From NCBI GenBank assembly GCA_030295235.1, contig AP026126.1, positions 1,426,001-1,490,000 of the forward strand: a DNA stretch of 64,000 bases, read 5' to 3'. Numbering within the stretch: the stretch's first letter is position 1; the number at the start of each line of letters is the position of its first letter. The translations under genes were made by a program, and so were the position numbers. This DNA is from Fistulifera solaris (taxonomy: Eukaryota). Under the pieces are notes generated by a model. The model was not told the DNA's origin and searched no databases. It saw only the letters and a list, made by a program, of their open reading frames with translations. Shown piece after piece: positions 19,254 through 30,068 of this stretch.

Positions 19254-20783
19254 ATGTCTTTGACTAACGCAGAAACCGAACTTGAAAGGGACCAACACCT
19301 TGTCATCGACACGACTCCTATCATGAATGAATCGATTCGAGAAGAAGCTGACGATACTGGCGATGAAGCTGGAACGGTTCAAACAGGTTCTTCGCAGATA
19401 CGCGAAGGGACTATTGCGTCCGGTCGCTTCAATATTCTTTCGACCATGGTTGGCGGCGGTTCTCTCTCACTCCCGCTCGCCTTTCAAAAGACAGGTAACG
19501 GCTTCGTGGCTCCGATGTTGCTGCTGATCGTGGCTTGCATGACGGAATTTTGCTTTCGAACTCTCACCACGTCTGCGCGGACGTTATCTCCACCGGATCA
19601 TAATAAACGGGGACAGGATTCGTATGAATCTATCGCCAGTGCAGCGTTCGGTCGTAAGGCGTACGTCATGTCGACGATTCTTGTTACAGCCATGTGTTTC
19701 TTCGGTACAGTCGCTTATGCTGTCTTATTGCGTGATATGTTGCAGCCTATTTCGGAGTACATTTTCGGACGATCAACTTCGGGCCCGACTTGGGAGAACA
19801 ATGTCACCATGTTGACGGTCGTCGTCGTGGTGACACCTCTTTGTACTTTGAAGACCTTGACCGCTCTACAACGCTTCGGGGCCTTGGGGATGTTTTCGGT
19901 TCTAGTTCTGGGCTCCTGCATTGTATATCGATCTATCGAATGCACGGCACATCACGCGGATGACTGGAAAGCAGCCTTTCAGTGGGGACCGAACTCTTTA
20001 AGAGATGTGCTCGACGTCTTCCCCCTCTTTGTATCGTGCTACGTCTGCCATTACAACATACCAGTTGTGCACAACGAACTTCGTAATCCCACAACGGCTC
20101 GAGTGGCGTGGTGGTTGAAATCGACTACATGGTCGGCTACGCTATTTTATATGTTGATGGGTGTGGCAGGGTCTGCGTACGCCCCTTGCGCCGCATTGAA
20201 AGAGTTGCATGGAAACGTTCTTTTAGATTTTGACAACGATGATCCGGTAGTGATGGTGGGGCGAATGTGCCTGGCTTTGACCATCACTTTGGCATTCCCT
20301 ATGCTAACGATTCCAGCGCGCGATATCGTGTTGCGGACTCTCTGCTCTTCTCGCACCAGTTCCGCTTTGACTACTGAACTTTCGTTGGAAGAAGAAATTG
20401 ATTTTGAAGAACCTTTGTTGGCCGATCATAATAATGAAGAAGGAGAAGTGGCGCAACGAGATGATAATCAAAAGCAACACTCATTTGGACTCCTGCTGTT
20501 TGCGTCTATCGGGGTATTTTGGACAGCAGCCTTGCTAGCTAGTTGCGTCTCGAGCATCGACATTGTATGGGAGCTGTTGGGGAGTTCACTATCTATCTTC
20601 ATGTCGTATCTCATCCCTTGTGGATCATATCTGGTCATAATTCGGATGCAACAGGCTTTCCAGACTGATATATCATGGAAGGATCGAATGTCGGTGATGA
20701 TTGCGTGGTTCCTGGTTTTGCTGTTCATCCCTCTCATGTTTCTGTCGTCTGCCAACGCCGTCTACAAAGTATTTCTACGCTAG
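19254..20783 (+). CDS. Amino-acid transporter, AAAP/SLC38 (Aa_trans) family
   Basis: FNILSTMVGGGSLSLPLAF, SYESIASAAFG, SCYVCHYNIPVVHNELRNPT, multiple TM helices. Confidence 0.9.
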   Translation: MSLTNAETELERDQHLVIDTTPIMNESIREEADDTGDEAGTVQTGSSQIREGTIASGRFNILSTMVGGGSLSLPLAFQKTGNGFVAPMLLLIVACMTEFCFRTLTTSARTLSPPDHNKRGQDSYESIASAAFGRKAYVMSTILVTAMCFFGTVAYAVLLRDMLQPISEYIFGRSTSGPTWENNVTMLTVVVVVTPLCTLKTLTALQRFGALGMFSVLVLGSCIVYRSIECTAHHADDWKAAFQWGPNSLRDVLDVFPLFVSCYVCHYNIPVVHNELRNPTTARVAWWLKSTTWSATLFYMLMGVAGSAYAPCAALKELHGNVLLDFDNDDPVVMVGRMCLALTITLAFPMLTIPARDIVLRTLCSSRTSSALTTELSLEEEIDFEEPLLADHNNEEGEVAQRDDNQKQHSFGLLLFASIGVFWTAALLASCVSSIDIVWELLGSSLSIFMSYLIPCGSYLVIIRMQQAFQTDISWKDRMSVMIAWFLVLLFIPLMFLSSANAVYKVFLR

Positions 20784-20841: not shown

Positions 20842-21879
20842 TCATTTGGAGGAATCATCGTAATTGTAGAGTGGTATTACGTCTTTCGCAGTACATGGTG
20901 ACCGGCAGATGGGACACTCCGGTCGAACCGTTTGTACCCATTTTTGCAGGCAAGTCCAGCAGTATACGTGTCCGCAATCTACAGGACAGGCCGAATATGT
21001 TCGAGGTCCGTGACAAATACCACAAATTGTTCGAGAGGAAAATGATGCATTGTTGTCTTTGACACTTGGAAGGGTGTGCCTGTCGCAAAAGTCAAACCAC
21101 CAATGTAAGAGTCGCCGAGAACCCGAAAGAAGACCGGTGCCTAGAGCATGAGACAGGATAAGAGCGCCGATAGCTCTGTATGCTGTGGGACGGTTAACCA
21201 GCCTGCCTTCTTCGCCTTGCTGGAACGTGATACCCAAAAATCGATACATCCATGAAGCGTAATTCCCATGGATGCAATAGAACCCCAAATGCAATCGCAA
21301 CAACCATTGCAACCATGATCGGTGTGCGGTTGAATCACCAGGGGGATGATGTGGCCCTTCTGCTTCTGGACGAAGTGCATCACAGATCATTCGAAGAAAG
21401 GCTTTAATTCGACATTGTAGTGTTGAAAATCTACGGCTGTTCTCCGTGGCTGTTTCAGGCCTACTAATTGTTTGTGAGGTCCTACTCGTCATGGCTGCTC
21501 TTTGCCGAAGGAAAACATCGCGCCGTGATGCTCCTCGCAGCGACTCGATCGATTCCTCTTCTTGTGAAGTTATTCTTTTGCTCAACGCATACGCCGTAAA
21601 CGAACTCGCGACAGACAGTGCCGCCATCTTGTAATGCAACTTATCTAATGTAATACCCGTCGCTTCCATACCAAGCGTCTTTCCTTTTCGTAATAGCACG
21701 AGCAAAGCATAGAGAATCGAGCTTACAGCGGCAGCGGTTCCCTCATCGGACCAGCCAAACGCTTCCAAAACTTGATGTACGAGTGTTCGACATTCATCGA
21801 CGTATCTAGCATCTTTTGCTGCCGCCAATAACACTTCCGGTACCAGCATCCGTCCCTTTGTTGTTTCCAAAGTTGTCAT
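20842..21879 (-). CDS. PEX10: Peroxisomal RING-finger peroxin, PEX10-like
   Basis: PEVLLAAAKDARY N-terminus, KTLGMEA, LHLGFYCIHGNY, C-terminal C3HC4 RING (CGIC...CGHVYCWTC...ECPICR). Confidence 0.75.
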   Translation of the reverse strand: MTTLETTKGRMLVPEVLLAAAKDARYVDECRTLVHQVLEAFGWSDEGTAAAVSSILYALLVLLRKGKTLGMEATGITLDKLHYKMAALSVASSFTAYALSKRITSQEEESIESLRGASRRDVFLRQRAAMTSRTSQTISRPETATENSRRFSTLQCRIKAFLRMICDALRPEAEGPHHPPGDSTAHRSWLQWLLRLHLGFYCIHGNYASWMYRFLGITFQQGEEGRLVNRPTAYRAIGALILSHALGTGLLSGSRRLLHWWFDFCDRHTLPSVKDNNASFSSRTICGICHGPRTYSACPVDCGHVYCWTCLQKWVQTVRPECPICRSPCTAKDVIPLYNYDDSSK

Positions 21880-22308
21880 GTTTAAAGATATTGAGAATCC
21901 GTTGTAGCTTTCGAACAGCTTGTTTTTGCTAAGAAAAGCAATTTAGAAATACCGGATCCCACTTTTTCTTGAATAGTAATAATAACCGTACTGGTATCCT
22001 CAAGCGAGTAAGGAAAACGAAAAAACGCAGCAACATCATGAGCTGCAAAGCGCAGAACACCCGATGCTGATTCATGACTGAACTCGAGTCGGGGATGGCG
22101 TGAACGAACAGTTTGGGCACAATAAACCCATCAAATGTCATGATCCGAGACCATTATCGGTTGAACTAGCCCTTGAATGAAAACTAAATGTAGCAAATGA
22201 TTAAAACTTAGCTCTTTAGATACAACGAATATCAGGTATAACGACAAACGCAACGATGAAGACTCACGACTGAACTGGACCCAGTCGTGACTACGAACCC
22301 CACCCACA

Positions 22309-22595
22309 TGTTAAAATACTAACGTACTGTGGAATCGAACCACAGAGTTAAGGCCAGGGAGGATGTCAGATTGAGGGTCTGGACGTCCATCAGAGTGGCT
22401 TATATATCATGGATCTGGGTAGAAATACGACGTGATTGGGATGGCTCTGTGGTTCGATTCCACAGTACGTTACCATGTTAAAATACTAACGTACTGTGGA
22501 ATCGAACCACAGAGCCATCCCAATCACGTCGTATTTCTACCCCGATCCATGATATATTAGCCACTCTGATTGACGTCCAGACCCTCAATCTGACA
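22309..22595 (-). mobile_element. Non-autonomous LTR-retrotransposon-derived mini element with internal inversion
   Basis: TG...CA termini; CCCACA on both flanks (22303-22308, 22596-22601); 120-bp LTR-like unit (22595-22476) followed by TGGTA; inverted copy preceded by purine-rich AAGGCCAGGGAGGA. Confidence 0.6.
22364..22595. repeat. 109-bp inverted repeat with 14-nt loop, plus 41-bp direct repeat
   Basis: Arms 22364-22472 and 22487-22595 are complementary with 3 mismatches. CATGTTAAAATACTAACGTACTGTGGAATCGAACCACAGAG occurs at 22307-22347 and 22474-22514. Confidence 0.95.
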
Positions 22596-22660
22596 CCCAC
22601 ACACACACACAAAAAAATACAAGTACAACGACGTCAAAAAATGCTATTGAAGTTTTAGCA

Positions 22661-25144
22661 ATGACCGTCTCTATAAACAAGAATCCCACATTTCAAATTA
22701 CCGGTAGTGCAGCAAAATCTCGTATTGCTCCTTTGCTGCCGCCAAATTGGGTTGAAGGCGATACGAATGTCGATTTCTTGTGGGAAAATGCTCCGCGTGC
22801 TGTTACGAGATCATTTCGAGACAATGTCGCGTGCTATTCGCATTTACCCAACGGCACAAACATTTTAGATAGTAAATGGGTCTTGGCACGACTCTTTCAA
22901 GATGCGCACTGCTTTACGGGTCTTGCTGGCTTTCAACACTTCTGTCGTCGACAGAAGTGTTCGTCAGATGTCGTCGATGATGAGTCATTTCCACAGCGTT
23001 GTCCTGATTTATTTCCGGGGTATGAAAGTACCGAGATTTTTACGAGTTTTAGGGACTGGTGGGTCGTTAAGGATGCTTCCTCGAACGGGGCCGGAGGTAT
23101 TTGGGTCGTTTCACCGCAGAACAGGTCATTCTATCAAGATGCTCGTACAAGTCCATTCATAGAGAATCATCGATACGTTGCGCAGCCCTACGCTTGGCCG
23201 TTGGTTCTGTTTCAGGGACGAAAATGTCACGTTCGCGTCTATGGACTAATCACGAGTGATGGGAGAGCATTTGTTCACGACCGCGCATTCCTGCATGTCG
23301 CCAATGAAGCATTCACGGGAGAGAATTTGCAAGATACGGTGCACATTACAAATTGTTGTGCGAACAGTCATGACCTCGCTCAATTTTCGGGCGAAATTTG
23401 TGCTCATTTAAGAGTTGACTCGAATCGGCTGACAGCAGAAGGTGAGATCGAAATCGGTCTTGCTCGCTACAAGCAAGCAATTCACGATAAAGTAGCCCAG
23501 CTAGGGGAGCATACCGGATCGTTTCTTAAAGGAGGGCAAAAGAACGGAGGATTTGAGTATTTGGGGCTCGACTTTATTCTCACGGGGGATGATTCGGCTT
23601 TTTTACTGGAAGTGAATGCACCTCCGTCACAAGATACTGCGACAGGACTTCCGCACGCGGAGGCGTTGCACGATGCGGTTATTCATGATTTATTACATTT
23701 GTGGGTTTACCCCAAAGTCCTAGGTCAAGAAGAGCAGCCTGGCGATTGGCAGTGCGTGTATGCTCCTACAGTCGTCGAAAGTTTTCAAGCGAGCGGTGTG
23801 CCATCGAAAGCAGCACTAGCAAATAAAATGAGATGGGCTCTACTCGAAAGGAAACTATCAAGGATGGGAGACATTGAGGAACCCAAGCGAATGGAATACT
23901 CGTTTTGTGTACCTGGGATTCGAAAACATTTTCGATATTTCCATAATAGTAAGAGGAAGCCACTTATCTACTTTGAAAATGCGGGAGGTACGCAAGTCCC
24001 TATTTTTGTTGACAACGCCGTGCAGTCATCCTTGGCGCTTCGAGATCGCTCAATACAGGGCAAAGCTTGCGTAGCGTCGGCACGCAACACCTTGCAACTT
24101 CTTTTGGGAGCTCAAAAGTGCCGAATTTTTCTAGGAGCAAATGCCTCCCAGCTTATATCCAACTTGGCAGATGCTTATCTTGACCTTCTTTCGTCTGATG
24201 ACGTGATTGTCATCAGCACAGACAACCATTTGGCAAACATCCAACCATGGGTAAAGGTTGCAGTTAGAACTGGTGCAGGCATTCGGTGGTGGAATTCAAT
24301 CGAAGAAAAGTTTCCTCTCCTGACTAAGTCGACGCGTCTTGTGATCGTTCCTCATGCCTCCAATGTTCTAGGTGAGGTTCGCGACCTACATTCGCTTCAG
24401 CGCCACGTGCGTCGTGAGACTAGCGGACGTGCACGGACTATTGTTGATGGAGTGGCTGCAGCGCCTCATCGATTCGCCGACGTCGATACAATTGAAGTGG
24501 ATTGGTATGTGATCAGTTGCCATAAAGTGTTTGGGCCACACATGGGTGTATTGTGTGGGAAACCTGATGCTTTACATGAACTGTCCTCTCCGCTTGAATA
24601 CGGTACTTTGAACTACGAGGCGTGTGGAGGCATAGCTGGATTGGGTTATTATTTCTCAGCACTAGCTTCTCATCTGTCATCTCAAAGACATGACGACGAT
24701 GAGTGTCTTTCTGGTAACACTTACAGTGAAGAGAAAGAGACCCTTCAAACGGCAGTGTGTGAAACAACCGGCGTATTGTCTCCCGAGCTTGTGAAGAATG
24801 CATACCAACTGATACGTCAAGTCGAACTGCCTCTCACTAAAATGCTGATTGAAGGTCTCCAGCGTTCAGCTAAAGTGTTGGTCTTGGCCTCGCAGCAACA
24901 ATGTTTGGACAGGCAGCTTCCCATAGTGAGCTTCTTGCACAGCGACTTAGATGGTGAACTGATTGTTGAGGCCTGTCGCCGTGCTGGCATCATCTGCCGA
25001 TACGATTCCTTTCTTTGCAGCGAGCGACTTATGGAACAACTAAAGTTTCAACGAGTAGTTCGCTTTTCTCTTGTGCACTACAACACAGCAAAAGAAATTT
25101 CCTACACCTTGAAAGTACTGCAGTCGCTAGAAGGTTGGTTTTAG
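22661..25144 (+). CDS. Fusion: tubulin-tyrosine-ligase-family ATP-grasp domain + class-V PLP cysteine-desulfurase-like domain
   Basis: N-half: WVVKDASSNGAGGI, YVAQPY...GRKCHVRVYGLIT, HITN, FEYLGLDFIL...LLEVNAPPS. C-half: YFENAGGTQVP, NHLANIQPW, HASNVLG, VDGVAAAPH, SCHKVFGPH, VRFSLVHYNT. One 827-codon frame. Confidence 0.85.
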   Translation: MTVSINKNPTFQITGSAAKSRIAPLLPPNWVEGDTNVDFLWENAPRAVTRSFRDNVACYSHLPNGTNILDSKWVLARLFQDAHCFTGLAGFQHFCRRQKCSSDVVDDESFPQRCPDLFPGYESTEIFTSFRDWWVVKDASSNGAGGIWVVSPQNRSFYQDARTSPFIENHRYVAQPYAWPLVLFQGRKCHVRVYGLITSDGRAFVHDRAFLHVANEAFTGENLQDTVHITNCCANSHDLAQFSGEICAHLRVDSNRLTAEGEIEIGLARYKQAIHDKVAQLGEHTGSFLKGGQKNGGFEYLGLDFILTGDDSAFLLEVNAPPSQDTATGLPHAEALHDAVIHDLLHLWVYPKVLGQEEQPGDWQCVYAPTVVESFQASGVPSKAALANKMRWALLERKLSRMGDIEEPKRMEYSFCVPGIRKHFRYFHNSKRKPLIYFENAGGTQVPIFVDNAVQSSLALRDRSIQGKACVASARNTLQLLLGAQKCRIFLGANASQLISNLADAYLDLLSSDDVIVISTDNHLANIQPWVKVAVRTGAGIRWWNSIEEKFPLLTKSTRLVIVPHASNVLGEVRDLHSLQRHVRRETSGRARTIVDGVAAAPHRFADVDTIEVDWYVISCHKVFGPHMGVLCGKPDALHELSSPLEYGTLNYEACGGIAGLGYYFSALASHLSSQRHDDDECLSGNTYSEEKETLQTAVCETTGVLSPELVKNAYQLIRQVELPLTKMLIEGLQRSAKVLVLASQQQCLDRQLPIVSFLHSDLDGELIVEACRRAGIICRYDSFLCSERLMEQLKFQRVVRFSLVHYNTAKEISYTLKVLQSLEGWF

Positions 25145-25204
25145 ATTTTACCAACCGAGCGAAGTATTCAATCAAAAATGTTTCTGCCGCGCTATCGGAT
25201 TTAA

Positions 25205-27769
25205 CTAGCCTGTTTTTCTTATTATCACGAAAAAGTTTCCGCTTTCAAATCCACTTTCGACCATCTCTACGTTTGGTATAGACAAAGCAATACTGTCTAG
25301 TTCTCCTTGACGGTATAGGTGGCAGTATCGCTTGAAAACAACCAACCCTTTTTCTTCATCGTAGTCGGCATTTAGCGCTTCTAAGTAGACTTTCGACGTA
25401 GTCGAAATATTTTCATTCGCTGCGGTCTCGTCCTGACTTGTGTTTCTTCCTTTTTCACCATTAATTGCATCGTCTTGCAACTTCAAATGTCTCGGTTGTG
25501 CGTTAAAAGGCACGTATACATCATTAGATGCAAACCTTCGTCTGCTACCTTCCTCCTGAGTCATCGCCCAAGCCTGAATGTTGATTAAGCTGCCAGGTTT
25601 GACAATTCGTACCAGCTCTTCAATGCATCGGCGGCGTCGTGACTCGTTGGAGAGATGATGCATTACTGCAATGCAAATCGCGGCATCACATGATCCTGCT
25701 CGCAATGGGACGCTCATGCAGTCTGCAACCGCGATGGCAGGCCGATTTCTCAAATGACGACGGCGTTCACTGACCCTTCTACTCTCGGGTACACCTTCGT
25801 CGCTCAAACTGGCAGCACTAGTCGCCGTCTCGAGAAGAGGTAGACTAATATCCGTACCAATCACATACGAACCCGCTTCCCAAATAGCTGGAAAATATTT
25901 TCCATCGCCACAACCAACATCCGCAACGACAGACCCTGGCGGAAGTTTCTGCAAGAAGTGTGTTGCACCGGGCCACAGCACACCTCTTTTTCCTCGCGTA
26001 TGATGCCACTGTGTCGCGATTGCGTTATAGACGGCGTGAACATGGTTTCGTTCGCAATCTGGGGTAGCTAGTGGCGACAACAGATCTGGATTACCCCAAC
26101 AAGGTGGGAATGAATGCGATTCGACACAAGCCATTGGCGAACCGTCCGTATCCAATGCTGTTCGGAGTGTCAAGCTGATTCGTGTTCCTCGTCGTACGAC
26201 TTCGCCGTTAATAGTGTCCGTCATACGACTGACTATCATGTGTTTCCAAGAGTACCGAGCTTCTTTTGACATCAAAAGCAAGGAACGCGGGGGAAGAAAC
26301 ACTTGCTTGCGGAGTCCTTTCGTTTCTTCCTGAACGCAGTTAAACTCCATGACAATACCACTACCGAGAGATATGCTGATTAATCCGTCACCGAAAGCGG
26401 ATGGTGTATCCACGTGTGAGCCAATTCCTTCTCCCGGTGCGTACCGATTCACAGTGAGTTGATTGATGGTAGCATAAGAACGTTCACCATCGTCCTCTTC
26501 GATAAATTTCGTTCGCCGAACTCTTTCAATAACTCCAGCTACAACTTCCCAACCACATCCTTCACGAACATTGTCCACAAGAAAATCCTCTAATGGTTTA
26601 TTCCCAGGATTCACCGCGGGCATGGGTGGACAATCGGCTCCCGAATCGCTTCGATCCCTTAGGACATCTGCTGTGCGATAGTCAAATACATATCCGTAAT
26701 GCTGAACCGATCTTTTTATAGTTCCACCGTCCGTGGGAGTATTTTGTGCGGGAGCCCAAGGAGCGTGCGGTCCATCCAAGACAGCCAATAAAACCGCCTC
26801 CTCCTCGGGTGAAACAAAATCCGGAATAAGAACCAATCCTGGTATTTGAACATCAGCAGTCAACGAAGTACATTCACTGCGCGATGGCTCTCCCGGTCCA
26901 TCACCCCGCACTAGACGCCGTCGTGATCTTTGTGTAATAGCCGCATAGTCTAAAAAGAGCATTCCACTGGCAATCAAATGTTCGGTCCCTGTAGCATCGG
27001 CCCATTTCCATTGCACTTGTTTTCCTTGATGTGTTGCAATAGCATGTTGAGCTTCCTCCGCCGAACGAAACCCCAAGTGACAGTACTTGGACAAACTTTT
27101 GTAATTTACAAAAACTTCTACGTCGACCGCGAAAGCAGATCGTATCGCTTGGGCTACCCAATGAGGCTCGTCCCAGTCTGTGTCGTGTTCGTTTTGTAAC
27201 AAATTGGATACAAAAACAAAACGCGTCGCCTCTCGCTCCTCTTGCAACAATGTTTCGCTTTCTCCCGGCCGCAGTAATAGGCGTCGAAATTTAGGTGGGC
27301 TAGATCGTGTCCACGCCATTGTGTCGGGTAATTGTGGTTGTTGTGTCAAAAGGGTTGCCTGAATGGGTCGCGAGCCTAAGTGTTCATCCAAATCAATGGA
27401 CTGAAAGAGATGCTGAATGGTCATTTTTCGTTGCCTTATCACCACCAATGCGTGTAATGCTTGTAAGGGCGTTTTATAAATCAGACGTACTTTCGTAAAG
27501 GGTGCGACCGTGTCGAGCAATTGTACTTGCATGGCTGCCACGGGGAATTTGAAAGACGCGAAATTGTGTTGAAAGACGCGTGACAAGGCCGTTTGCAGAG
27601 TTTCAACGGTCCAATATGACTCCTCCTGTTCTTCTTGTTGGTGTTCTCCTCCATATCTTCTTTGTTGTTTCGGACAGAATGCACCTTGTATATACAAATA
27701 ACCGTGCTGATCCTCGCTGGGGATCGGTTCGTGCGGTAAAATCGATCGGAATACTGCTGTTTGTGTCAT
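25205..27769 (-). CDS. ALKBH8: tRNA wobble-U34 methyltransferase/hydroxylase (RRM + AlkB + Trm9 methyltransferase)
   Basis: RRM (FVFVSNL, HLGFRSAEEA). AlkB (VQHYGYVFDY, NQLTVNRYAPGEGIGSHVD, RYSWKH, RISLTLR). MTase (HVHAVYNAIA, DVGCGDGKY, CIAVMHHLS, RYCHLYRQGEL). Confidence 0.93.
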   Translation of the reverse strand: MTQTAVFRSILPHEPIPSEDQHGYLYIQGAFCPKQQRRYGGEHQQEEQEESYWTVETLQTALSRVFQHNFASFKFPVAAMQVQLLDTVAPFTKVRLIYKTPLQALHALVVIRQRKMTIQHLFQSIDLDEHLGSRPIQATLLTQQPQLPDTMAWTRSSPPKFRRLLLRPGESETLLQEEREATRFVFVSNLLQNEHDTDWDEPHWVAQAIRSAFAVDVEVFVNYKSLSKYCHLGFRSAEEAQHAIATHQGKQVQWKWADATGTEHLIASGMLFLDYAAITQRSRRRLVRGDGPGEPSRSECTSLTADVQIPGLVLIPDFVSPEEEAVLLAVLDGPHAPWAPAQNTPTDGGTIKRSVQHYGYVFDYRTADVLRDRSDSGADCPPMPAVNPGNKPLEDFLVDNVREGCGWEVVAGVIERVRRTKFIEEDDGERSYATINQLTVNRYAPGEGIGSHVDTPSAFGDGLISISLGSGIVMEFNCVQEETKGLRKQVFLPPRSLLLMSKEARYSWKHMIVSRMTDTINGEVVRRGTRISLTLRTALDTDGSPMACVESHSFPPCWGNPDLLSPLATPDCERNHVHAVYNAIATQWHHTRGKRGVLWPGATHFLQKLPPGSVVADVGCGDGKYFPAIWEAGSYVIGTDISLPLLETATSAASLSDEGVPESRRVSERRRHLRNRPAIAVADCMSVPLRAGSCDAAICIAVMHHLSNESRRRRCIEELVRIVKPGSLINIQAWAMTQEEGSRRRFASNDVYVPFNAQPRHLKLQDDAINGEKGRNTSQDETAANENISTTSKVYLEALNADYDEEKGLVVFKRYCHLYRQGELDSIALSIPNVEMVESGFESGNFFVIIRKTG

Positions 27770-28353: not shown

Positions 28354-30068
28354 ATGTATCGCCTGCGAATGCAACATGCATGCATATTCGCTCAAGTGCA
28401 ACACAACGTGCGACGAAGGCATGCAGCCGTTCGGTGTTTCACAACAACAACAACAACAAGAGTTGACTCCTCAGGAGATCCTCTTTCATCGTCATTTCAA
28501 CAGCTTACCAATCTACACAAACCGCTACAAGAACGCCTACTGCAATTGGGGTGGTATATACCTACTGAAATTCAAGCCAAGACATGGCAAGCCGCTACCG
28601 ACGGTCGAGATGTGTTGGGACGTTCGAGAACGGGCAGTGGCAAAACGATGGCCTTTCTCTTGCCGACGTTACAACGATCCATGACTATCAATAACAATGC
28701 AGGTATCAAATTGATTCTTTCACCGACACGAGATTTGGCGCAACAGATTGATGAACAAATCAAAATTCTGTACCCGCTGGATGAAACGAATCATAGCAAT
28801 CATCATATCGTAATTGTCGGTGGTGTCGACAAACAACGAGAACTCAAACGATGGCAAGAGACTGCACCTCAGTTCATTACAGCGACTCCGGGTCGACTTC
28901 GCGATCATGTAGAGAATGCCGACAACACGTTTGTTCGTGAATATGTACAACATGTAGACGTACTGATATTGGATGAAGTCGATCAGCTTTTGGAAATGGG
29001 ATTTCAAGATGACATCGATGCTATTATCCAGCACTTGCCCCAACAACGACAGAATCTACTGTTTTCAGCGACTATTACACCCAACATTCAACGAGAACTG
29101 GTAACGCGAGGCTGGATTCATTCGAATCACTTTTTTGTCGATTGTATTTCGGATGCGGCGGCGACAGAAGTACAAGAAGATCCGTTCGATATGGAACACG
29201 ATGCCGACAACAAGTTGACGACCGCCACCGCTCCCACTCTAGCGCACACACATGTATCGCAATCGCATGTCGTGCTTCCACCGCATCGATTGGTGACCGG
29301 GATTGCTCAAATTGTTTTGACACTACTCCAACAAGAAGACAAGAATGCCAAGATATTAGTCTTTTTCCAACAACAAGTATGGTGGTCTACTTCACTCGAC
29401 TATTTCAATGGGCTCTTGGTCGACACGTTTGGTCCATGCACGGACAAAAAAGTCAAATGGCACGGAATGTGACACGACAGGCATTTGCTGCGGCCTCGCG
29501 TGGTGTTCTGTTTACCACAGATGTTTCGGCGCGCGGAATGGATTATCCTTCCATTAGCAATGTTGTTCAAATCGGGGTTCCGGCTAGCCGCGATACTTAT
29601 ATACATCGGCTGGGCCGTACGGGACGAGGAATGGATAGTTTGAATGGGAAAGGACTGTTGGTGCTTTTGATGCCACAGGAAGAGAAAATTATGAACCGGG
29701 AGTTACAAGATATGGACATTCCTTTGGATAAGAGTCTTACGAGGTTATTAGACCGCCCGGTCTGGCTGGATTTAGAGATGGAATTGACCCAGTTCGCGCA
29801 TGACATGAAACAAGGCGAACTACCCGAAATGGTGAAGGAAGCGGAAAGTGTTTACAAGAGCTTGCTATCGATCTACAAGTTACAGTTAAAAGAAGACATA
29901 GTGGTGGAGACTATGAATAGTTTGGCAGCCCAAATGGGCCTGTCGGAACCGCCAGTGCTGGAAGAAAACCAAGCTGCTTACTTAGGTTTGTCGAAGCACC
30001 CACTGTTAAATATTCACCGGCCATGGAAACTGGGACAACGCTTTGATGTAGGAGGACGGAGAACATGA
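28354..30068 (+). CDS. DEAD-box RNA helicase, Mss116-like (organellar)
   Basis: PTEIQ, SRTGSGKT, PTRDLAQQ, TPGRL, DEVD, SAT, TDVSARGMD, YIHRLGRTGR. Frameshift at ~29365. Confidence 0.9.

Follow-up and report, generated by a model that had tools for sequence, protein, structure and literature searches.

Enzymes of the tubulin-tyrosine ligase (TTL) family, which includes TTL itself and the TTL-like (TTLL) proteins, have to our knowledge been known so far solely from the modification of proteins, mainly tubulin, and every characterized member that we know of uses as its acceptor a carboxylate in a protein or peptide, either that of a Glu side chain or the C-terminal one. Yeast Pby1, in which the partner domain is SurE-like and which binds the decapping enzyme, shows that TTL-type domains can be part of multidomain proteins other than tubulin enzymes. 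Among the class-V pyridoxal phosphate (PLP) enzymes, a branch with the desulfurase fold lacks the catalytic cysteine, and its characterized members perform unusual C-C chemistry. Fgm3 is reported to carry out a PLP-dependent retro-aldol reaction on gamma-hydroxylated arginine, with Tyr225 as the proposed base (bioRxiv 10.1101/2023.03.21.533663), and UstD a decarboxylative aldol reaction in which the nucleophile derives from L-aspartate, with KpbH as its Mannich counterpart (PMC13741828). Here we report that the TTL family and this cysteine-less branch are paired in a single gene of the diatom Fistulifera solaris, located at positions 22661..25144 of a 64,000-nucleotide stretch of DNA (NCBI GenBank assembly GCA_030295235.1, contig AP026126.1, positions 1,426,001 to 1,490,000 of the forward strand), hereafter the window. 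The resulting TTL-PLP fusion is a new, conserved and lineage-specific architecture built from known domain families. The sequence-only reading of the window knew of no characterized protein with such an architecture, and no paper describing one was found in the full-text literature, subscription journals and supplements lying outside the search; PMC7335047 deals with an ordinary TTL/polyglutamylase.

That reading had placed one intronless frame of 827 codons at this locus, and at the same coordinates we find a single uninterrupted open reading frame (ORF) on the forward strand, comprising 827 codons plus the stop (standard code, ATG starts), with in-frame stops upstream of its first ATG. All the motifs that had been quoted are present, both in the TTL half (WVVKD at residue 134, SNGAGGI at 141, GRKCHVRVY at 186, HITN at 228, GLDF at 302 and LLEVN at 315) and in the PLP half (YFENAGGTQ at 437, DGV at 596, SCHK at 619, ending in Lys622, ICRYDSFLC at 778 and RFSLVHYN at 801). 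The identification of a TTL-type ATP-grasp domain joined to a class-V PLP domain is likewise borne out, since both Pfam families pass their curated cut-offs, and such agreement goes far beyond chance. The parts of the gene are given below, where counts out of 126 refer to a conservation set of fused sequences made up of the F. solaris protein, 120 listed homologues and 5 distant ones.

22661..25144, + strand: whole gene, a single exon coding for a TTL-type ATP-grasp domain and a class-V PLP domain (ORF; full-length alignment to fused homologues)
22661..23761, + strand: TTL/TTLL-type ATP-grasp core, residues 1-367, with N, central and C subdomains (Pfam, AlphaFold (AF2) model, Foldseek, structural Z)
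23069..23071, + strand: Lys137 in WVVKD, predicted ATP-binding lysine (121/126, the other 5 being gaps; invariant in the alignments of 29 and of 41 sequences)
23216..23242, + strand: GRKCHVRVY strand with Lys188 and Arg192 (aligns to TTLL6 GFKFDLRVY; each residue in 123/126)
23342..23374, + strand: HITNCCANSHD motif (aligns to TTLL6 HLTNYSINKH; Asn231 and Asn235 in 126/126)
23555..23617, + strand: EYLGLDF...LLEVN with Glu299, Asp304, Glu317 and Asn319, ATP-grasp metal/ATP site (TTLL6 FEILGFDILL...LLEVN; all 126/126)
23801..23872, + strand: connecting helix, residues 381-404, PSKAA.LNK.RWA..ERK (conserved; Trp392 invariant in a 29-sequence alignment)
23873..23896, + strand: short linker between the enzymes, residues 405-412 (predicted local distance difference test score, pLDDT, <50; length and sequence vary in the 29-sequence alignment)
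23897..25141, + strand: class-V (fold-type I) PLP domain, residues 413-827 (Aminotran_5 E 3.9e-37; TIGR01976; PDB and Foldseek matches)
24446..24448, + strand: Asp596 in VDGVA, presumed partner of the PLP pyridine nitrogen (126/126; VDGVA in Fgm3, LDGA in SufS)
24524..24526, + strand: Lys622 in SCHK, Schiff-base lysine, preceded by His621 (aligned to the Fgm3/SufS lysine; 126/126)
24686..24766, + strand: acidic variable insertion in the PLP domain, residues 676-702 (pLDDT <50; gap in P0205, P0212 and P0223)
24998..25018, + strand: loop R-Y-D-S-F-L-C, residues 780-786, in place of SufS R-x-G-H-H-C (alignments)

The role of Lys137 is assigned from the TTL/TTLL enzymes, and that of Asp596 presumably follows fold-type I enzymes.

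Integrity and distribution of the fused gene

Among 5.8 billion clustered proteins, 246 matched the query, and the best 120 of them were listed. The sequence-only reading had allowed for the two halves being separate genes in relatives; PF03133 and PF00266 are both present in 119 of these 120 best homologues, the sole exception being P0106, with 74% cover and without a TTL annotation. Most of the listed homologues cover 98-100% of the query and are of similar length, and hence the frame bears no sign of an intron or frameshift. According to their source names, fused homologues occur in Fragilaria crotonensis, Mayamaea pseudoterrestris, Amphora coffeaeformis, Cylindrotheca closterium, Nitzschia spp., Seminavis robusta, Cyclotella atomus and a Leptocylindrus transcriptome, with fragments from Skeletonema, a 'Psemu1' portal record, Corethron and Chaetoceros, and the fusion spans radial centric, polar centric and pennate diatoms. 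Both domains are also found in a 782-aa protein (KAH8053167.1) of Aureococcus anophagefferens, a bloom-forming pelagophyte, and in two further relatives, P0205 and P0212. The protein encoded here is itself already in public databases, where it falls into one 90% cluster with its nearest named relative, a 90% identical 'hypothetical protein' of F. solaris (GAX28454.1). Since P0099, a protein of 918 aa from an MMETSP-labelled transcriptome, contains both domains, a fused mRNA is made in at least this relative.

The possibility of a stop or indel at the junction, likewise raised by the sequence-only reading, was addressed with contigs from four public runs of a single study, of a kind guessed to be RNA and perhaps derived from the assembly's own sample. 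Contigs of three of these runs cross the junction (X1, 23452-24049; X2, 23751-24023; X3, 23699-23988) with 0 other letters and 0 gaps, and no indels or joints are reported on 22200-25400 in the contigs of the four runs. Short X1/X2 contigs with 4-5 clustered differences were seen at 24056-24104 and 24988-25034, where other contigs are exact; these are consistent with another, similar gene copy, for example one encoding the 90% identical protein P0002/P0257 of the same cluster.

All 63 hits of a search with the N-domain alone look like the same diatom family, as members or fragments, and no distinct named stand-alone TTL relative was recovered with it by this word-based method, which would miss distant ones. 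In bacterial and archaeal genomes, 58 matches to the two family-specific patterns used, a weak test for prokaryotic relatives, yielded 0 confirmed by tblastn. Searches of a cluster atlas returned generic TTL/YheCD clusters, many from giant viruses, for the N half and generic bacterial class-V clusters for the C half, and gave no functional lead for either. None of the 120 best hits is shown to be a stand-alone form that is complete and lies on a long contig, and most of the shorter ones come from contigs of 1-4 kb.

The two catalytic domains

The Pfam TTL family (PF03133) matches residues 117-351 with 66.8 bits against a cut-off of 20.1 (E 2.4e-18; profile positions 60-286 of 292). The AF2 model of residues 1-409, based on 41 aligned sequences, has a mean pLDDT of 88.1 and a predicted template modelling score (pTM) of 0.90, and its Foldseek matches are TTLL6 and TTL, with E about 1e-13. 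A structural search gave Z values of 24.4 for TTLL11 (330 residues, root-mean-square deviation 4.0), 22.5 for TTLL6, 22.0 for TTLL7, 21.1 for both TTL and Kluyveromyces lactis Pby1 and 19.1 for TTLL3, with other ATP-grasp enzymes at or below 14.5 (ArgX 14.5, RimK 14.1, LysX/ArgX 13.4, D-Ala-D-Ala ligase 13.3 and glutathione synthetase 13.2). On this predicted structure, the N-domain has a TTL/TTLL-type fold that is clearly apart from other ATP-grasps. Its sequence is remote from the solved members (Pby1, the best, at E 1.2e-05 and TTLL6 at about 1e-04), and in the HMMER alignment to TTLL6 and TTLL3 the residues Lys188/Arg192, the HITN string and Glu317/Asn319 fall on the catalytic motifs, as illustrated by the pairing of HITNCCANSH with HLTNYSINKH and of FEYLGLDF...LLEVNAPPS with FEILGFDILL...LLEVNISPS of TTLL6.

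The resemblance to TTL, TTLL6/7/11 and TTLL3 thus extends to the Pfam family, the three-subdomain fold (Z 19.1-24.4 over 272-330 aligned residues) and the K..R strand, H-[IL]-T-N and L-L-E-V-N motifs. However, identity is a mere 11-19%, and the diatom protein is fused to a PLP enzyme and is devoid of the cationic microtubule-binding domain; tubulin as its substrate has no support here. Pby1, the C-terminal domain of which (K. lactis, 6y3p) is the best PDB sequence match of the N-domain, carries its ATP-grasp domain at the opposite end of the protein, to judge from the 6y3p title, and its partner is not a PLP enzyme; the two proteins are not orthologous. The next-best structures after the TTL clade, those of LysX/ArgX with LysW and of RimK, belong to another ATP-grasp subfamily and furnish an analogy only. 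To judge from their entry titles, ArgX, RimK and LysX are also ligases acting on a C-terminal Glu of a protein. In LysW-type systems, further enzymes, among them a PLP-dependent one, process the amino acid after it has been attached to a carboxylate of a protein.

The PLP half matches Pfam Aminotran_5 (PF00266) with 128.5 bits against a cut-off of 21.5. Of the NCBIfam models, TIGR01976 ('cysteine desulfurase-like protein', the VC1184 type that includes Fgm3-like enzymes) scores highest, with 195.3 bits, which is under its cut-off of 352.35. The desulfurase models also miss their cut-offs (sufS, 132.7 against 475.1 bits, E 1.5e-38; CsdA, 80.3 against 493.6; SufS PRK09295, 79.1 against 661), as does the SclA selenocysteine lyase model (33 against 525 bits), and those for IscS and NifS are far under theirs. 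The best solved sequence relative is the Fusarium 'aminotransferase-like protein FGM3' (9x4u, E 1.1e-32), followed by several chains named only 'cysteine desulfurase' (1e-22 to 1e-19), UstD (7mkv, 3.6e-19) and SufS, and Foldseek relates the PLP domain to SufS, Rv3778c and UstD, with template modelling scores normalized to the target, TM(target), of 0.76-0.82. Egt2/EgtE are absent among the 60 PDB sequences listed of 80 that matched at E <=1, no dedicated comparison having been made.

In a maximum-likelihood tree of 66 PLP domains, computed by a quick method and midpoint-rooted for drawing only, the 33 fused domains, including four shorter and probably partial sequences, are monophyletic with a Shimodaira-Hasegawa-like approximate likelihood ratio (SH-aLRT) support of 100. 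Within this clade three pelagophyte-type sequences (support 96), which lack the acidic insertion 676-702, are sister to 30 diatom rows (support 92), and the other 33 rows of the tree, from plants, fungi and bacteria, fall outside it. One plant-type relative of the PLP domain, P0224 (667 aa), carries an N-terminal WRC domain (PF08879, E 7.1e-16) in addition to Aminotran_5, a further uncommon fusion in this PLP family.

Conservation was compared between the 126 fused sequences and 114 non-fused relatives of the TIGR01976 type (bacterial, fungal and plant). At the 23 ATP-grasp sites checked, the residue of the F. solaris protein is found in at least 109 of the 126 fused sequences, and at the catalytic ones in at least 121; the figure for Lys137 is shared by Trp134, Asp138 and Asn142. 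In the PLP half, Asn568, His603 and Thr649 are as invariant (126/126) as Asp596 and Lys622, His523, His565 and His621 occur in 125/126, and Arg780 and Arg801 in 123/126. With catalytic residues retained in at least 121 of the 126 sequences, selection acts on both sites. Leu785 occupies the SufS catalytic Cys position in 121/126 fused sequences, within a loop of the form R-x-[GSD]-x-F-L-[SCAT], and the adjacent residue 786, a Cys in F. solaris, is variable (S 58, C 36, A 16 and T 9 of 126). The replacement of the canonical SufS RxGHHCA loop noted in the sequence-only reading is hence a trait of the family, from which it follows that the fused enzyme is not a persulfide-forming desulfurase. Ahead of the Schiff-base lysine, His in 125/126 fused sequences contrasts with Tyr in 107/114 non-fused ones, and the non-fused loop G-H-F-Y-A (Tyr in 100/114) with the fused x-F-L-[S/C/A], which has one extra residue. 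Finally, Cys655 ('NYEAC', 24623-24625) is found in 120/126 fused sequences as opposed to 12/114 non-fused relatives, and by eye appears to align with the SufS 'EAGTPNTGG' dimer-interface segment rather than with the mobile loop.

These features set the PLP domain against its known relatives. It shares VDGVA.xPH, the Schiff-base Lys and the absence of a catalytic Cys with Fgm3, encoded in the fusaoctaxin cluster, and with TIGR01976, but differs from them in missing the model cut-off, in forming a separate clade and in having His-Lys instead of Tyr-Lys and x-F-L-[SCA] instead of G-H-F-Y-A; the Tyr replaced by His621 is the retro-aldol base proposed for Fgm3. With UstD and KpbH it has in common the class-V fold (7mkv, TM(target) 0.78) and Cys independence, the C-C chemistry of these two proceeding via an alanine-derived nucleophile; identity is, however, about 21%, and both are stand-alone enzymes of fungal gene clusters. 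The fold and PLP-binding residues, including the His-Lys dyad and two Arg, are those of SufS, CsdA and selenocysteine lyase, but without the catalytic cysteine loop and with the desulfurase model cut-offs missed the protein is not a member of SufS/CsdA. To judge from its sequence, the PLP domain is thus a distinct clade beside TIGR01976, cysteine-less like Fgm3 and UstD and SufS-like before the lysine. The earlier description of this half as cysteine-desulfurase-like overstates the link to sulfur, given that the nearest solved relatives, Fgm3 and UstD, are C-C enzymes and that the Cys is absent family-wide. For relatives, which are automatically labelled 'selenocysteine lyase/cysteine desulfurase' or 'Aminotransferase class V domain-containing protein', the former label is misleading because the catalytic cysteine is missing. 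We regard it as very probable that the fusion is an intact, real single-exon gene for a two-site enzyme whose cysteine-less PLP half forms a clade of its own.

Coupling of the two reactions

Given that both sites are under selection and that the fusion predates the split between diatoms and pelagophyte-type relatives, the simplest reading is that the protein carries out two steps of one pathway, and such coupling, with the acceptor left open, seems to us probable. The conservation, which starts at about residue 10 and leaves no presequence, suggests a soluble cytosolic enzyme, and dimerization would occur through the PLP domain, as in class-V enzymes. The PLP domain may perform C-beta/C-gamma bond chemistry on a free alpha-amino acid, similar to that of its nearest characterized relatives (retro-aldol in Fgm3, decarboxylative aldol in UstD, loss of a beta-substituent to give alanine in SufS/CsdA), but without an enzyme persulfide, which cannot form here. 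Its product would then be the incoming amine for the ligase, in which ATP would phosphorylate a carboxylate to an acyl-phosphate and the alpha-amine would be joined to it; the acceptor would most likely be a carboxylate at the C-terminus or on a Glu side chain of a protein or peptide, and the net outcome a lineage-specific amide-linked modification.

PLP enzymes require a free alpha-amine, as an acylated one forms no external aldimine. The PLP step is therefore likely to come first, an N-acylated amino acid being unable to bind PLP, and the opposite order suggested by the sequence-only reading, in which an amino acid such as Cys is ligated and then subjected to PLP chemistry, is chemically unlikely unless ligation takes place through a carboxylate of the amino acid, in its side chain or elsewhere. 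The full mechanism, with the PLP step first and its product ligated onto a protein or peptide carboxylate, is put forward tentatively, and its more specific form, in which a non-standard amino acid is made at the PLP site and ligated TTL-style onto a Glu or C-terminal carboxylate of a target protein, has to be considered somewhat doubtful. Formation and ligation of D-amino acids, amino acids of the beta-N-methylamino-L-alanine (BMAA) type and betaine-lipid head groups are speculation, and so is self-modification of the acidic insert 676-702, an insert absent in the pelagophyte-type members. An ovothiol lyase was considered and dropped, as OvoB is a class I/II enzyme (PMC8433421) and the pathway needs no ATP-grasp.

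Several observations weigh against the coupled mechanism and its protein acceptor. Fusion by itself is no proof of one shared pathway. The Pfam scan shows no microtubule-binding or other extra domain on the N-domain, the calculated isoelectric point (pI) of which, 5.9, does not favour binding to an acidic protein tail. His621/Leu785 of the fused clade stand in place of the Tyr/Tyr of non-fused relatives, an active site unlike the Fgm3 type, so that the chemistry of Fgm3 and UstD is not simply transferable. The whole-protein model, with a mean pLDDT of 84.3, has a pTM of only 0.53, which leaves the mutual placement of the two domains undefined. A predicted complex of residues 1-409 with residues 412-827 scored 0.00 with the alignment unused, and counts neither way.

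It is possible, and nearly as likely as the protein- or peptide-acceptor mechanism, that the product is instead a small molecule, a low-molecular-weight amide, dipeptide-like or gamma-/beta-linked, specific to diatoms and pelagophytes. The PLP domain might supply an unusual amino acid for coupling to an acidic metabolite by the ATP-grasp; alternatively, the ATP-grasp might amidate the side-chain carboxylate of Asp or Glu, the PLP domain then acting on the free alpha end. Enzyme fusions mostly unite consecutive metabolic steps, Fgm3 and UstD are natural-product enzymes, and the lack of a presequence would fit a soluble cytosolic enzyme; the absence of microtubule-binding or protein-interaction domains in the Pfam scan and the pI of the N-domain also speak for this reading. 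On the other hand, no characterized TTL-family enzyme is known to use a small-molecule carboxylate, and the structural neighbours at Z 19-24 are all tubulin/protein ligases or Pby1. The two enzymes could also be fused but independent, for co-expression or co-localization, or one domain could serve as a regulatory or dimerization scaffold. The pTM just given, the low-confidence linker 405-412 that parts two well-folded domains and the lack of any sign of active-site communication are in keeping with this idea, which is rather unlikely in view of a fusion kept since before the diatom/pelagophyte-type split, of catalytic residues conserved in both domains, along with helix 381-404, and of the lack of a full-length stand-alone form on a long contig among the 120 best hits.

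A role in sulfur or selenium mobilization, with a true cysteine desulfurase or selenocysteine lyase and an ATP-grasp that activates a carboxylate, for instance as a thiocarboxylate, could be argued from the source labels of homologues, from the E-value of the sufS model and SufS-type Foldseek matches (E about 1e-23), from the SufS-like His621-Lys622 pair, which is not that of Fgm3, and from Cys655 and the Cys786 that the F. solaris protein has beside the SufS cysteine position. The labels are automatic, however, Cys655 aligns to a dimer-interface segment, residue 786 is Cys in 36/126 sequences only, the SufS, CsdA, IscS, NifS and SclA models remain far under their cut-offs and, with Leu at the SufS position, the catalytic cysteine is missing, so that we consider this role quite improbable. 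The notion that neighbouring genes were joined by an indel error, or that the locus is a pseudogene, goes back to an unverified remark on assembly indel errors in the sequence-only reading and is effectively refuted by the 827 open codons, by contigs of three runs crossing the junction without difference, by the agreement in architecture and approximate length of 119 of the 120 listed homologues, from many species, and by the intact catalytic residues.

Should the more specific form of the mechanism, in which a non-standard amino acid is made and then ligated to a protein, prove true, it would represent a new post-translational amino-acid ligation, found only in diatoms and pelagophyte-type relatives, and the first TTL-family enzyme to be fed by its own fused amino-acid-making domain. 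Diatoms account for a large share of ocean primary production and possess much lineage-specific biochemistry without known genes. An undescribed protein modification and an undescribed metabolite are both conceivable products, and each of them would add new biochemistry to a group that is ecologically dominant. Being encoded by a single intron-free ORF, the enzyme is directly testable by expression and by knockout in model diatoms.

Sequences surrounding the gene

Downstream, a convergent gene (25205-27769, - strand) encodes an 854-aa protein with 2-oxoglutarate (2OG)-Fe(II) oxygenase (AlkB-like) and methyltransferase domains; its stop codon and that of the TTL-PLP gene are some 60 bp apart, and the 3' ends therefore nearly touch or overlap. 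Upstream lie an Aa_trans amino-acid transporter gene (19254-20783, + strand, E 3.2e-47) and the gene for a 345-aa protein with a C-terminal RING finger (20842-21879, - strand), for which the domain scan shows no functional link to the TTL-PLP gene.

The intergenic region 22307-22598, upstream of the ORF, contains a near-perfect palindrome with arms of 119 nt (22361-22479 and 22480-22598), 94% complementary and without spacer, a 41-nt direct repeat (at 22307 and 22474) and a tRNA T-arm-like string, and several loose contig ends, some of them tRNA-like, are found there. The X1 word depth is about 190-450 over this region, as opposed to 10-45 over the TTL-PLP gene. These features suggest a multi-copy element resembling a miniature inverted-repeat transposable element (MITE) or a short interspersed nuclear element (SINE). 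Farther downstream, two overlapping ORFs (28354-29472 and 29379-30068, both + strand), the first of which has the DEAD helicase N-terminal domain only, may represent a single DEAD-box helicase gene interrupted by an intron or frameshift.

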